Positions 1,084 to 5,093 of a stretch of DNA of 5,152 bases are shown one piece after another. The translations under genes and the position numbers were made by a program. The notes under the pieces are model-generated. The model was not told where the DNA came from. It worked only from the letters and a program-made list of their open reading frames with translations, and searched no databases. The DNA is from a virus (lineage: Duplodnaviria; Heunggongvirae; Uroviricota; Caudoviricetes): the IMG/VR virus record IMGVR_UViG_2713896909_000012; one strand, given 5' to 3'. Numbering within the stretch: the first letter of the stretch is position 1; each line of letters opens with the position of its first letter.

Positions 1084-1109
1084 TGGACACTATCGTTGCT
1101 TATGTTTAT

Positions 1110-1134
1110 AAAAAAAGCCCTGCTTACGCAGGGC
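1110..1134 (-). terminator. Rho-independent terminator (minus strand) closing the AT-rich island
   Basis: Perfect 7-bp stem GCCCTGC (1117-1123) / GCAGGGC (1128-1134) with a 4-nt loop. On the minus strand it is followed by T7 (plus-strand A7 at 1110-1116). Lies 29 nt downstream of the 76-aa gene stop and just upstream of the HNH start. Confidence 0.6.
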
Positions 1135-1162
1135 ATAAAAACTCAATATTGATACTATGAAT

Positions 1163-1393
1163 CTATTCCAAATCCCAACGTGGAATATTTATTATCTTAC
1201 CAGGAGTTAAGGAAAATTTGGCTTTCTTCAATATCTCAACATTAGCATCATCAGGAATCACTAAGAAGTACGAATAGTGCATTTCTCCAGAATTCCCATG
1301 ATTCTCCTGAATATCATCTTCGCTAACTCCCGACGCTTCAAGCTCATCAACTGTGAGTCCTAAATAATCAGCTAGCTTTTGTATATCAATCAT
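1163..1393 (-). CDS. Hypothetical small acidic protein (76 aa), possible N-terminal helix-turn-helix
   Basis: Strong Shine-Dalgarno GAGGTGA 7 nt upstream of ATG 1393. The N-terminus MIDIQKLADYLGLTVDELEASG resembles a MerR/Xis/XRE-type HTH helix-turn-helix (LA..LG.T...L...G). An intact ORF in AT-rich DNA argues for real coding. Function unknown. Confidence 0.55.
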   Translation of the reverse strand: MIDIQKLADYLGLTVDELEASGVSEDDIQENHGNSGEMHYSYFLVIPDDANVEILKKAKFSLTPGKIINIPRWDLE

Positions 1394-1692
1394 TAATCAC
1401 CTCACATATCAACGATGAGGCATCATCATCACACACTCTAGCAAAAGCTTCAACTTATTGTTATTATTAAAATAATTCTATACAAATTACATCTAATGTA
1501 TATCCTATGACACGACAGGTGCGAATATTAATGACAAACAACCATCGTATTTCTCTGAAAAATGGCAAGTATCACTCATTATTCCCCATGCATCTATGTA
1601 CTCTGTTCATGGTCAAGCCATAACTATATTTAATGCAAGAATACGGAAAGTTAAACAAATAAACGTTGATACACTAACATTCCACAAACTAG

Positions 1693-1986
1693 TTATACTA
1701 ATGAAGTAGGCAATTCTTCCTCTGAAATTCCCAATACTCTCATATCGGCCCGCAATTCTGCTATAGCGCACACTTCACTATAAGATGGTGCGGACTTCTC
1801 AGGATAAAGTACATACTCAAAATGCGGCGGAGGATTGAATATTAAAACCGAATACCCAGCTTCTTGAAGGATATTTTGGACGATTGAATAATAAGGTCTA
1901 CGCTCATCAAACCAATAACATCCATTCCTTTCTATTGACGCGATTGCTTTTTTTGCGTGCTTCTTATAAACCCATGCCTTATCCAT
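1693..1986 (-). CDS. Hypothetical protein (97 aa), function unknown
   Basis: A 97-codon open frame is unlikely by chance in AT-rich sequence. An AGGGAG motif lies about 15 nt upstream of the ATG, which is long spacing. No signal peptide, transmembrane segment or motif I recognise. Confidence 0.5.
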   Translation of the reverse strand: MDKAWVYKKHAKKAIASIERNGCYWFDERRPYYSIVQNILQEAGYSVLIFNPPPHFEYVLYPEKSAPSYSEVCAIAELRADMRVLGISEEELPTSLV

Positions 1987-2004
1987 ATCCTGTCAAAAAT
2001 CTCC

Positions 2005-2034
2005 CTACGTAATTGAACAATAACACTACGTAGT
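2005..2034. promoter_or_regulatory. Operator-like pair of TACGTA palindromes in the 5' leader of the 97-aa gene
   Basis: CTACGTA at 2005-2011 and the 10-bp perfect palindrome ACTACGTAGT at 2025-2034, centres 21 bp apart (two helical turns). Lies between a candidate -10 TATAAT (minus strand, 2118..2113) and the ATG at 1986. Confidence 0.25.
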
Positions 2035-2134
2035 AGTCATACACCAGAATATCTAACATATCAATCCAGCAACATTTAATTATTTTAACTTAATCTGAAA
2101 AAGTCTTCAGTGATTATAATTTCACACCTATATA

Positions 2135-2425: not shown

Positions 2426-2702
2426 TCTCAACAGCCACTTTGATATCTTCCTGGGTTCTCTGTGACTCCAGTGCGATCTGCTGTTTTGCATGCTGGTTAG
2501 CCTCCAGAACTGTATTGACGATTTGTAGTGATTGCAGGACGTTATTGGTAATGGCTGTTGCTGATTCAGCATTTCGTACAGCCTCATCAGCACGTTTCTT
2601 TTCGTGCTGATATTTGCTGTAGTAGTGGTTGGTAGACCAGATGAAAGAACCGATGACAGTAAAGAAGAATGCAGAGATAGCCAGCTTATAGCTCAACTTC
2701 AT
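2322..2702 (-). CDS. i-spanin (Rz-like inner-membrane protein)
   Basis: N-terminal transmembrane segment (LAISAFFFTVIGSFIW) followed by a charged, coiled-coil-like periplasmic domain. Start overlaps the endolysin stop by 17 nt and the Rz1 start is embedded out of frame, as is typical for spanin pairs. Confidence 0.75.
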   Translation of the reverse strand: MKLSYKLAISAFFFTVIGSFIWSTNHYYSKYQHEKKRADEAVRNAESATAITNNVLQSLQIVNTVLEANQHAKQQIALESQRTQEDIKVAVENDDCASRAVPAAAADRLRKYADSLREHSGYTTTN

Positions 2703-3162
2703 TTACCACCCCACCAGCCTCTTTAAACCGGGAAATCAGGTCACCGATTTTATGTTCATACTGACCGTAACCTGCACCAGGTAACGACGCCCAAATATTG
2801 CTGCAACGATCGATAGCCTGACGAATATCGCCGCGATCAATCATCGGTAAAGCGCCACGCTCTTTAATCTGCTGTAATGCAACAGCATCCTGGCTTTTAG
2901 GAGAGAAGTCTGTCAGCCCTAACTGCTTGCGGTAAGCATCCCACCAGCGCGAAAGAAGTTGATAACGGCCTGCAGCTGTTGATTTGAGTTTCGGGTTTAG
3001 CGTGACAAGCTTGCGAGGGTGATCGGAGTAATCAGTGAAGAGTTCTCCACCGACAATAACATCATAACCGTGGTTACGTGTCGGTTGTCGCCCGTTATCC
3101 GTTCCTTCTGACCATGCCACCATATCGAGGAAAGCTTTACGCTGGGAATTTAGTACCTGCAT
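2686..3162 (-). CDS. R: Endolysin, lambda R-like lytic transglycosylase
   Basis: 158 aa, near-identical over long stretches to lambda R as I remember it (NQRKAFLDM.AWSEGTDNGRQ.TRNHGYDVIVGGELFTDYSDHPRKLVTLNPKLKS...RYQLLSRWWDAYRKQLGL). AAGGAG Shine-Dalgarno 6-7 nt upstream, overlapping the holin stop. Confidence 0.9.
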   Translation of the reverse strand: MQVLNSQRKAFLDMVAWSEGTDNGRQPTRNHGYDVIVGGELFTDYSDHPRKLVTLNPKLKSTAAGRYQLLSRWWDAYRKQLGLTDFSPKSQDAVALQQIKERGALPMIDRGDIRQAIDRCSNIWASLPGAGYGQYEHKIGDLISRFKEAGGVVNEVEL

Positions 3163-3165
3163 AAA

Positions 3166-3501
3166 TTACTCCTTAGAGCCACCAAACTTATTACCGATTA
3201 CTCTCATTGCAGCCCCACGAATAGCATCGACCCCGATCAGCCCAACGCCGCCACCAATGGCAACAGAAAGAGATTTAGGCCATCCGACATACTCAAGAGC
3301 GGATGCAAAAGTCAGCGTCAGAGCACCACAGAGCAAAATCTCGAGCGTTTTTCGTTTCCAGCCACCACCACCGCCAAAATAGGCAATGCGCAAGCCAGCC
3401 ATAACGATCGACATAATCACTGCGCCCAGCGGCGTATCTCCACGCCACCAGCTCTGGAACAACTCCAGCCAGTCCGGCCAGGTATTTGGGTTATGAGGCA
3501 T
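3166..3501 (-). CDS. Holin (class I-like, three predicted transmembrane segments)
   Basis: Directly upstream of the endolysin. Three hydrophobic segments (PLGAVIMSIVMAGLRIAYF, LEILLCGALTLTFASALEYVGW, LSVAIGGGVGLIGVDAI) and a charged C-terminus. I place the start at ATG 3501 (GAGGTGAGAG Shine-Dalgarno upstream) and not at the track start 3597, because the extension would span the terminator at 3549-3570 and overlap the methyltransferase gene. Confidence 0.7.
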   Translation of the reverse strand: MPHNPNTWPDWLELFQSWWRGDTPLGAVIMSIVMAGLRIAYFGGGGGWKRKTLEILLCGALTLTFASALEYVGWPKSLSVAIGGGVGLIGVDAIRGAAMRVIGNKFGGSKE

Positions 3502-3548
3502 TTCGTCATCTCTCACCTCGCGATATTTGCGGGTGCTGTGTTGGAAAT

Positions 3549-3570
3549 AAAAAGGCCACGCAACGTGGCC
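3549..3570 (-). terminator. Rho-independent terminator (minus strand) after the methyltransferase gene
   Basis: Perfect 7-bp stem GGCCACG (3554-3560) / CGTGGCC (3564-3570) with a 3-nt loop. On the minus strand it is followed by TTTTTATTT. Begins 8 nt after the methyltransferase stop. Confidence 0.6.
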
Positions 3571-3577
3571 ACCAGAA

Positions 3578-4630
3578 TTATTTCCCCACCAGTTCACTTA
3601 CCTCTTTCACCGTCTGATTAAACCGCTCTGACTCAAGTTCAACACCTAACGCCCGACGCCCCAGCGCCATTGCCGCTTTTATTGTGGAACCGGATCCCAT
3701 AAAGAAATCAGCAACCAGATCGCCTGGTCGACTACTGGCACTGATTATTTGCCGGAGCATATCCGCAGGCTTCTCACACGGATGTTTACCCGGGTAGAAC
3801 TGAACGGGTTTATGCGTCCAGACGTCGGTATAAGGCACGGAAACTGATACGGAGAAATAGCGCCGGAGAGTTTTAAACTCATCCAGCAATTCAGAATATT
3901 TGCGATTCAGTGAATCATAAGATGCCACCAGCTGGTGGTGTGGTTGTTCCAGTTGTTGTTCCTGAAACTTCTCTGCCGCTATACGGGAAAACAGTGCCTG
4001 CAACTTCCGGTAGTCAGCCTCATTCGGTAACTGCCACTGACTGGCACCAAACCAGTGGGAAACCATATTTTTCTTACCAGTGGCTTCGGCAATCTGTTTT
4101 GCCGTTATACCCAGTTCGGCACGAGCATCCCTGAAATACGAAATCAGCGGTGCCATTATGTGCTGTTTGAGTTGACTTTCTTTTGCCGCATAGCCGTCAC
4201 TTTTGCCGCGATATGGTCCCTGGTAATGTTCAGCAAACAGAACGCGTTCTGTTGCGGGAAAATATGCGCGCAGACTTTCTTTATTACACCCGTTCCATCG
4301 TCCGGACGGCTTCGCCCAGATAATATGGTTAAGAACGTTGAAACGTTCACGCATCATGATCTCGATATCAGATGCGAGGCGATGTCCACAGAACAGGTAA
4401 AGGCTTCCGGCAGGTTTCAGCACCCGCCAGAACTGGGCCAGACAGTGGTCCAGCCACTTCAGGTAATCTTCGTCCCCTTTCCACTGATTGTCCCAACCGT
4501 TGGGTTTCACCTTGAAGTACGGCGGATCGGTAACAATCAGGTCAATGGAATCATCAGGCAGGGACTGAATAAAATACAGGCAATCAGCGTTGATTAAATC
4601 AACACTGTTTATTTTTACAGTATTTTTCAT
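3578..4630 (-). CDS. DNA methyltransferase (amino-MTase, N6-adenine or N4-cytosine; DPPY N-terminal, FxGxG C-terminal)
   Basis: 350 aa. Catalytic motif IV DPPY (IDLIVTDPPYF) lies near the N-terminus and AdoMet motif I FFMGSGST near the C-terminus, the beta-class order. No restriction endonuclease gene is present in the window. Weak Shine-Dalgarno. Confidence 0.85.
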   Translation of the reverse strand: MKNTVKINSVDLINADCLYFIQSLPDDSIDLIVTDPPYFKVKPNGWDNQWKGDEDYLKWLDHCLAQFWRVLKPAGSLYLFCGHRLASDIEIMMRERFNVLNHIIWAKPSGRWNGCNKESLRAYFPATERVLFAEHYQGPYRGKSDGYAAKESQLKQHIMAPLISYFRDARAELGITAKQIAEATGKKNMVSHWFGASQWQLPNEADYRKLQALFSRIAAEKFQEQQLEQPHHQLVASYDSLNRKYSELLDEFKTLRRYFSVSVSVPYTDVWTHKPVQFYPGKHPCEKPADMLRQIISASSRPGDLVADFFMGSGSTIKAAMALGRRALGVELESERFNQTVKEVSELVGK

Positions 4631-4779: not shown

Positions 4780-4974
4780 TCATTGCTGAAGGCGTCTGTA
4801 ACAGCCGAACTGGTAATCTGCCAGCCCCGCCATAACCAACTGGGTCAGTATTAACTGACAGCGTTCGCGTGAAAGATATGTGTTTTGTGCAATCTCCCCG
4901 GCCGTTGTCGGTTCGATGCTTAATTCATTAAAAACAACTTTCGCCGTTTCTGTCATATCTTGCTGTTTTAGCAT
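4780..4974 (-). CDS. Small protein (64-72 aa), possible winged-helix (FaeA/PapI-like) DNA-binding protein
   Basis: The segment TTAGEIAQNTYLSRERCQLILTQLVMAGL resembles the recognition helix of FaeA/PapI-type small regulators. The track ORF starts at 4998; I prefer the in-frame ATG at 4974, which has AGAAGGA 8 nt upstream. The family assignment is from memory and weak. Confidence 0.45.
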   Translation of the reverse strand: MLKQQDMTETAKVVFNELSIEPTTAGEIAQNTYLSRERCQLILTQLVMAGLADYQFGCYRRLQQ

Positions 4975-5093
4975 GTCTTTTTTCCTTCTGGTTAACATGA
5001 CATACCAATAACTCTTGTCTAAAAAGCCAGCAAGATAAAAAGTCAGTATTCACGATCACCAGCGTGTTTACCGTACTGCCAACATCAAGGCAC

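Follow-up and report, generated by a model that had tools for sequence, protein, structure and literature searches.

A PA2723-like small protein encoded by a cargo gene in the bor/iss slot of an HK97/P27-type prophage

We analysed a stretch of 5,152 nucleotides (nt) of a Caudoviricetes genome (IMG/VR record IMGVR_UViG_2713896909_000012), hereafter the window, with a focus on ORF97, a 97-codon open reading frame (ORF) at positions 1693-1986 of the minus strand. Judged by its gene content, the minus strand of the window corresponds to the late region of a lambdoid prophage of the HK97/P27 type, and ORF97 lies in a variable cargo slot (1084..2134, minus strand) which extends from the lysis cassette to the genes for an HNH endonuclease and the small terminase. 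We show here that ORF97 is a real gene, carried as autonomous cargo (a moron) in the bor/iss slot of this prophage, and that its product is a PA2723-like small cytoplasmic alpha/beta protein. The initial annotation of this DNA had described ORF97 as the first gene of an AT-rich island, and both parts of the description hold: GC content is 33-40% over positions ~1090-2160 compared with 48-60% in the flanks, and ORF97 comes first, along the direction of late transcription, of the two minus-strand ORFs contained in this stretch (ORF97 and ORF76). ORF97 itself has a GC content of 0.39 and a GC content at third codon positions (GC3) of 0.33, against GC3 values of 0.43-0.68 in the adjacent genes.

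Genes were assigned using Pfam together with the RefSeq annotation of a 99.8% identical Escherichia coli locus. In the order of late transcription, the minus strand carries a 72-amino-acid winged-helix-like ORF (4780-4998), an N6/N4 DNA methyltransferase (3578-4630), a lambda-family holin (annotated at 3166-3501), a GH24 lysozyme (2686-3162), and Rz (DUF2570; 2322-2702) with an embedded Rz1/LysC whose stop lies at 2135. There follow an AT-rich leader, read from the sequence, between this stop and the ORF97 start (1987..2134), ORF97, a spacer 3' of it (1493..1692), ORF76 (1163-1393; phrog_31861), the HNH endonuclease (733-1083) and a P27-family small terminase (113-616).

The content of the slot differs among prophages that are otherwise near-identical. 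The AT-rich island was found in 8/5426 complete E. coli genomes, whereas 1127/5426 carry the flanking HNH module, where homology stops at the start codon of the HNH gene. Sister E. coli prophages that share these flanks have iss, a DUF6236 gene or a 74-amino-acid ORF in the slot instead; for example, E. coli strain 133 carries iss there, a Bor homologue of 97 amino acids on the opposite strand (L032 3490-3783). The junction from Rz to HNH is a cargo hot-spot in which iss, DUF6236, ORF76 or ORF97 alternate, and the prophage type that bears it is very common, being found in about 1 in 5 complete E. coli genomes. The DUF6236 gene and the 74-amino-acid ORF were located in this junction at L033 3041-3904 and L031 3613-3837, respectively. 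ORF97 has no part in lysis or packaging; as its variable presence and the lack of any Pfam or PHROG match show, it is not a housekeeping or structural phage protein, which the initial annotation had named as an outcome that would refute its reading.

Re-reading the window reproduced the coordinates, strand, length and sequence originally given for ORF97 exactly: the frame opens with ATG, has 97 codons and yields the same translation, and it is present in RefSeq, in identical form, as hypothetical protein WP_059242600.1. Also borne out were a basic N-terminus and an acidic C-terminus (net charge +4 over residues 1-30, -2 over 31-60 and -4 over 61-97) as well as the absence of a signal peptide or transmembrane segment, the highest mean Kyte-Doolittle value over 19 residues being 0.75, at residue 32. 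The length of the frame alone is weak evidence for a gene, because ~3% of the sequences obtained by first-order Markov shuffling of the island contain an ATG-initiated ORF of at least 97 codons. That ORF97 is a real gene follows from the combination of homologues with conserved motifs, low ratios of non-synonymous to synonymous substitution rates (dN/dS) in related subfamilies, and a confident fold prediction.

A word-indexed search of 5.8 billion proteins matched only ORF97's own 90% cluster, which comprises ten variants from E. coli and Escherichia albertii, every one of them 97 amino acids long. An exhaustive phmmer search over 1.84 billion representatives recovered 12 homologues of 93-106 amino acids with 27-60% identity, all of them in end-to-end alignments, and a profile search then added ten proteins. 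Residues W25, P54, V59 and R79 are invariant in the resulting family, A14, G22, G44, E57, A76 and G86 are near-invariant, and the conserved motifs are G-[RC]-[YH]-W-F, R-P, P-P-x-[WF]-E-x-V, I-A-x-x-R and a C-terminal G-x-x-x-x-x-L-P. All 24 members have an isoelectric point of 4.6-6.7 and a net charge of -1 to -9; the family as a whole is acidic and the basic N-terminus of ORF97 is not conserved in it. None of the members is fused to another domain. The initial annotation had raised the possibility of a disrupted larger gene, but ORF97 is not a fragment of this kind, because no family member is a longer or fused protein. The product of ORF97 is soluble and mildly acidic and consists of a single domain.

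The family is very rare. A hand-built degenerate DNA pattern, which recognises nearly all members with the PP motif, had matches in 2/185,579 species genomes, on 6 contigs of IMG/VR and on 11 from metagenomes. Searches with tblastn found none in 50,697 INPHARED phage genomes (queries ORF97 and P0025) and no match to ORF97 in 72,556 PLSDB plasmids. The scarcity of ORF97 itself, present in 8/5426 complete E. coli genomes, is one of the observations which one would expect if it were a functionless or decaying passenger, intact only through recent insertion, and others point the same way: the E. coli/E. albertii lineage has accumulated only 3-5 substitutions (dN/dS ~1), the signals for translation are weak and the scan called no promoter. 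On the other hand, all ten variants of the 90% cluster retain the full 97-amino-acid frame, the exact sequence of the window occurs on 399 contigs, and a family member is the sole gene of an integron cassette. Moreover, related subfamilies are under clear purifying selection, with Nei-Gojobori dN/dS values of 0.10-0.29 in the three that were divergent enough to measure. We regard a mere passenger as very unlikely.

The initial annotation had found no recognisable family for ORF97, which is correct for curated libraries but overlooks an unnamed family that includes a protein of known structure, PA2723 (PDB 6TCB). Profile searches of the kind that it had proposed as a check left ORF97 without a match in Pfam, PHROGs, NCBIfam or PADLOC: run with ORF97 alone and with all 24 members, they returned only sub-threshold noise, for example RktP, Peptidase_S39 and Histone_HNS_N, ORF97 gave nothing in Pfam at E <= 1, and neither ORF97 nor ORF76 matched any catalogued anti-phage defence component in PADLOC-DB at E <= 10. 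The structure prediction and Foldseek search, likewise proposed, yielded a confident fold and a single strong match. AlphaFold2, given a 23-sequence alignment, modelled ORF97 with a predicted local distance difference test score (pLDDT) of 90.1 and a predicted template modelling score (pTM) of 0.78; a single-sequence model was poor (pLDDT 66) and was not used. The predicted elements are a helix (residues 3-21), a strand (24-26), a second helix (30-42), two strands (47-50 and 58-62) and a third helix (69-84), and in the model the N-terminal helix packs on a beta-alpha-beta-beta-alpha core.

The only strong structural match to this model was 6TCB, deposited as 'uncharacterized protein PA2723' of Pseudomonas aeruginosa PAO1 (Foldseek E 4.6e-4, template modelling scores 0.78/0.80, root-mean-square deviation 2.0 Å), and the agreement in fold extends over the whole chain; the viral structures of BFVD contained no significant match. 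An hmmsearch of profile A3 against the PDB aligned query positions 8-94 with positions 6-91 of 6tcb_A at E 0.14, while hhalign of A3 against an alignment of PA2723 gave a probability of 90.9% and E 1.2e-6 over 88 columns. A joint profile, the 24 rows of which include a PA2723 fragment, retrieved PA2723-type proteins at E 1e-8 to 1e-5. ORF97 is thus a homologue of PA2723. Differences are that PA2723 has EGFDPV in place of the PPxWE motif and that its gene is chromosomal in P. aeruginosa. Neither Pfam nor NCBIfam has a family for PA2723, and a literature search on PA2723 and 6TCB returned unrelated papers only. The match therefore names a fold but not an activity, as PA2723 is equally uncharacterised functionally. 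The link to PA2723/6TCB and the delineation of the unnamed family are new; what was already known is the deposition of ORF97 as a hypothetical protein, the crystal structure of its relative and the existence of morons in the bor/iss slot, which are well known.

The predicted core is of the type seen in R3H, Alba and IF3-C, and ORF97 might accordingly be imagined as a small nucleic-acid-binding regulator that binds single-stranded RNA or DNA and modulates, for instance, a host or phage transcript. We consider such a regulator rather unlikely. The proteins of the family are acidic and lack R3H, catalytic or nucleic-acid-binding motifs, which makes a protein-binding role the most likely one.

Every family member was found in mobile-element cargo or in a conflict neighbourhood. 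In prophages of Proteus and other Morganellaceae, whose head and terminase genes differ from the E. coli type, the homologue has the spanin gene on one side and the small terminase on the other and runs antisense to the late operon, an orientation which suggests expression in the prophage state. In an integron array (L010), the homologue forms a single-gene cassette of ~360 base pairs (bp), with GTTAGGC and an attC-like repeat as its boundaries. A 102-amino-acid subtype resides in P4-integrase/AlpA/RadC/DUF2787/CbtA-type islands of Mangrovibacter, Erwinia and metagenomic Enterobacterales, and always ends 3 nt from the stop codon of a convergent tyrosine recombinase of 314 amino acids (L027 1218-2474, L028, L043, L045); this linkage is strict in the 102-amino-acid subtype and absent from all others. 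A 93-amino-acid subtype belongs to an element resembling integrative and conjugative elements (ICE-like), with a TIR-domain cluster, TrwB-like ATPases, RadC and a serine recombinase, where it lies two genes downstream of an XVIPCD-domain effector (X-Tfe) of a type IV secretion system (T4SS); the association was seen at five metagenomic loci, in a same-strand run of small genes. Finally, PA2723 is flanked by a GFA-domain gene and a lipoprotein gene, next to an AAA/Fer4_12/2098-amino-acid kinase-helicase-nuclease cluster which looks like a defence system. An all-against-all BLASTP comparison of the neighbours found no conserved partner gene across these contexts. That a one-gene module travels as prophage morons, as an integron cassette, in genomic islands and in an ICE-like element is new, and its presence in three vehicles (prophage moron, integron cassette and genomic island) provides direct evidence of selection on the gene itself.

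These neighbourhoods have further features of their own. The integron array (L010 1-9441, from metagenome ERZ23171419 NODE_841) contains 14 attC-like repeats of the form GCCTAAC...AAGCGGGAC...GTTAGGC and 17 small same-strand ORFs, including RraB-domain, UPF0167/CbrC and DUF7660 proteins and a 170-amino-acid Rx4H (HEPN-like) protein; several of these ORFs finish in attC-encoded '...KRDA' tails, and cassette leaders may have been duplicated, to judge by two repeats of ~235 nt and three of ~115 nt. In the ICE-like element (L007 1660-8479, L012 2868-5636), a ThsB_TIR/TIR_2/TIR_2/LD_cluster3 cluster is followed by an HExxH-containing X-Tfe, which overlaps an upstream lipoprotein gene and is followed by a 144-amino-acid protein; by eye, the latter resembles a PD-(D/E)xK nuclease fold in which the E-x-K residues are lost. 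Downstream of PA2723 (L017 10127-16285) are an AAA_2/AAA_5 ATPase, a Fer4_12 protein resembling radical-SAM-activating proteins and the 2098-amino-acid protein, with Pkinase, DUF4011, AAA_11/AAA_12 and MTES_1575 domains; a DyP peroxidase gene between PA2723 and this cluster is present or absent depending on the strain.

Two roles tied to particular neighbours were considered and rejected. The idea of antitoxins of a downstream nuclease was dropped: the HNH-like 295-amino-acid, the HEPN-like Rx4H 170-amino-acid and the 187-amino-acid neighbours, which looked nuclease-like by eye, are mutually unrelated and have no significant Pfam match. A recombination directionality factor, or excisionase, for the recombinase of the 102-amino-acid subtype was rejected, given that the protein is acidic and that no recombinase gene adjoins the members in prophages, the integron or Pseudomonas.

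A broader proposal is that of strict orphan immunity, whereby ORF97 would block the toxic domain of a competitor's effector (a T4SS X-Tfe, a type VI secretion effector, a contact-dependent inhibition toxin or a bacteriocin) and so protect the lysogen. The position of the 93-amino-acid subtype after an X-Tfe fits this proposal, as do the cassette within an integron array of small unrelated genes, the small, acidic and cytoplasmic nature of the protein, and the use of the slot for genes that benefit the lysogen, such as iss. However, the X-Tfe unit can be missing while the family member remains, on which ground we rejected the family as the cognate immunity of X-Tfe; this immunity is probably provided by the overlapping upstream lipoprotein. 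In addition, no toxin gene is adjacent in the prophage, genomic-island, integron or Pseudomonas contexts, and there is no Imm-family match in Pfam. Strict orphan immunity is, on this balance, unlikely.

Alternatively, ORF97 could be an anti-defence protein of mobile elements, inhibiting a restriction, TIR/Thoeris-type or nuclease-helicase system. Family members recur near RadC, AlpA and integrase-type establishment genes or leading-region-like genes, and near defence-like clusters (the TIR proteins, and the giant kinase/helicase/restriction endonuclease protein beside PA2723), while their size and acidity are typical of such inhibitors. Yet phage anti-defence genes are normally early, whereas ORF97 is placed late, after the lysis genes; the Morganellaceae homologues run antisense to the late operon; ORF97 had no match in the phage and plasmid collections searched above; and no known anti-defence fold was matched in the PDB or BFVD. 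We judge a dedicated anti-defence function to be fairly improbable.

The reading that we tentatively favour is a more general one, namely an immunity- or anti-defence-type role in which ORF97 serves as a protein-binding neutraliser. The initial annotation had leaned towards small anti-defence or immunity-like proteins on the grounds of size and location; this fit stands, the protein being small, acidic and domain-less and its relatives lying in cargo or conflict neighbourhoods, but no profile of such proteins matched. In the scenario we propose, the ORF97 module would have been inserted into the bor/iss slot together with a leader of ~150 nt and a trailer of ~200 nt, and the protein would act alone, by stoichiometric binding to a protein not encoded next door. 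That the protein acts unaided follows from the single-gene cassette, the lack of fusions and the lack of conserved partners, and a neutralising role is suggested by carriage on mobile elements, often amid defence, toxin or establishment genes. The target would be an incoming toxin or else a component of a defence or counter-defence system, and the gene would thereby benefit the lysogen or the mobile element.

Several observations weigh against this reading. No Imm, antitoxin, anti-defence or defence profile was matched, and the sole toxin adjacency, that with X-Tfe, is dispensable, one contig keeping the run of 173-amino-acid, family, 87-amino-acid and 168-amino-acid proteins without the unit of lipoprotein, X-Tfe and 144-amino-acid protein. 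ORF97 also sits in the late region, where prophage slots are as a rule occupied by genes for lysogenic conversion and not by early anti-defence genes. Its translation signals are weak and its Shine-Dalgarno spacing is poor, with a GGGAG (2001-2005) 14 nt from the ATG and an AGGA just 1 nt from it; a consensus scan called no sigma-70 promoter in the leader, and a promoter/terminator scan found no terminator between ORF97 and ORF76. Lastly, ORF97 in the E. coli lineage shows 4 non-synonymous to 1 synonymous substitutions relative to L024, although this ratio is uninformative either way because the substitutions are so few.

Going one step further, ORF97 and its relatives, PA2723 among them, might form an unrecognised family of stand-alone mobile-element inhibitors of conflict proteins, an extension which is possible but doubtful. 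Such inhibitors could be one-gene modules directed against a defence nuclease, an NADase or an interbacterial toxin, moving among slots, cassettes and islands. If this were true, they would represent a new family of single-gene conflict modulators, 6TCB, so far an orphan crystal structure, would gain a function for the first time, and a screen for targets would be structurally interpretable at once; otherwise, ORF97 would be one among many small uncharacterised prophage genes. Whatever the function, there is value for annotation, as ORF97 and PA2723 define an unnamed family that is missing from curated libraries.

The neighbouring ORF76 encodes a protein of 76 amino acids with an isoelectric point of 4.4 that matches phrog_31861 at 9.6e-36. 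Its N-terminus (LADYLGLTVDEL) is faintly helix-turn-helix-like in appearance, and no Pfam helix-turn-helix domain was detected. ORF76 is preceded by a promoter-like site, TATACA-16-TAGAAT (1502..1475, minus strand; promoter scan), and followed by a strong intrinsic terminator (1134..1117, minus strand; terminator scan). Homologues with 78-79% identity lie directly after Rz/Rz1, without ORF97, in two other prophages (L054, L055), and DNA homology to these ORF76-only prophages spans window positions 1492-1112, that is, the promoter-like site, ORF76 and the terminator. ORF76 is an independent moron (1112..1492, minus strand). The single island of the initial annotation thus consists of two stacked, independent modules, because ORF76 occurs alone in other prophages and the DNA homology starts only at 1492; the ORF97 module takes up ~1493-2134. 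We also considered, and rejected, a toxin-antitoxin pair formed by ORF97 and ORF76: homologues of ORF76 occur without ORF97, homologues of ORF97 are never beside an ORF76-like gene, and the two genes are separated by a gap of 299 nt, with ORF76 having a promoter-like site of its own.

As regards the non-coding parts of the ORF97 module, the leader contains a perfect TATAAT (2113-2118) with no good -35 element. Upstream of the Shine-Dalgarno sequence lies a perfect 10-bp palindrome, ACTACGTAGT (2025-2034), and a second TACGTA core is found at 2006-2011; the two TACGTA cores are 21 bp apart, and the pair could be a candidate operator. In E. coli PCP06173, the leader is interrupted by an IS3-family element (L029 4966-6128), and the same prophage carries several truncated genes (capsid, portal, TerL and methylase). 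The spacer at 1493..1692, which belongs to the ORF97 module, shows a 5-nt indel at 1604 and three substitutions between close relatives, and neither a terminator nor a conserved ORF was found there. Relatives of ORF97 are either antisense to the late genes (Morganellaceae) or followed by a terminator (L026).

Two of the lysis-side genes also merit a remark. The holin ORF, when called mechanically, has a GTG start and 143 amino acids (3166-3597) and overlaps the methyltransferase stop, while RefSeq gives 111 amino acids from 3501; the shorter start is more likely, since the Pfam holin match spans residues 35-137 of the long form. In the methyltransferase (350 amino acids), the N6_N4_Mtase match extends over residues 29-341 but covers only 220 model positions, which implies an insert of ~90 amino acids in the middle of the protein; weak HTH_3 and CggR_N matches at residues ~93-193 fall where this insert would be. 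An Rfam scan of the window returned nothing except a chance-level fstAT match (E 0.96).

How does ORF97 compare with elements that have been described before? Morons are recognised by a divergent base composition, by their presence in only some of a group of closely related phages, and by a promoter and terminator of their own, which allow expression from a repressed prophage; Bor, for example, has a role in serum resistance (PMC3594210). ORF97 shares the divergent base composition and the patchy presence (8 vs 1127 genomes, with alternative cargo in the same slot). As for expression signals of its own, only the lone TATAAT in the leader was found and no promoter was called, and the terminator at 1134..1117 belongs to the ORF76 module.

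With respect to R3H domains, as found in SPAG7, SMUBP-2, PARN and Jag/KhpB, the likeness of ORF97 is one of fold resemblance and not of membership. ORF97 has no histidine at the +4 position, is acidic and possesses an extra N-terminal helix; across the family, R30 is present in 19/24 members, S, Y or G takes the place of a conserved histidine at position 34, and no member matched Pfam R3H. Orphan immunity genes and single-gene integron cassettes differ from ORF97 in another manner: for the ORF97 family we found no obligate adjacency to a toxin, no cognate toxin and no similarity to catalogued Imm families. What the family has in common with them is that its genes are small, stand-alone, mobile and patchily distributed.

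The comparison with Bor and Iss is the closest in terms of position. Bor and Iss are outer-membrane lipoproteins with a signal peptide and a lipobox, whereas ORF97 is soluble and has neither a lipobox nor a hydrophobic segment; there is no relationship in sequence or fold and no match to a Bor or Iss profile, in line with the initial statement that ORF97 is not Bor-like, even though iss occupies the identical slot in a sister prophage. In lambda, bor is antisense to the late operon, and ORF97 in the window differs from it in being co-oriented with the late genes. The likeness lies in the placement: the slot after Rz/Rz1 and before the packaging genes is the same, iss is likewise 97 amino acids long, and the Morganellaceae homologues of ORF97 share with Bor the orientation antisense to the late operon.
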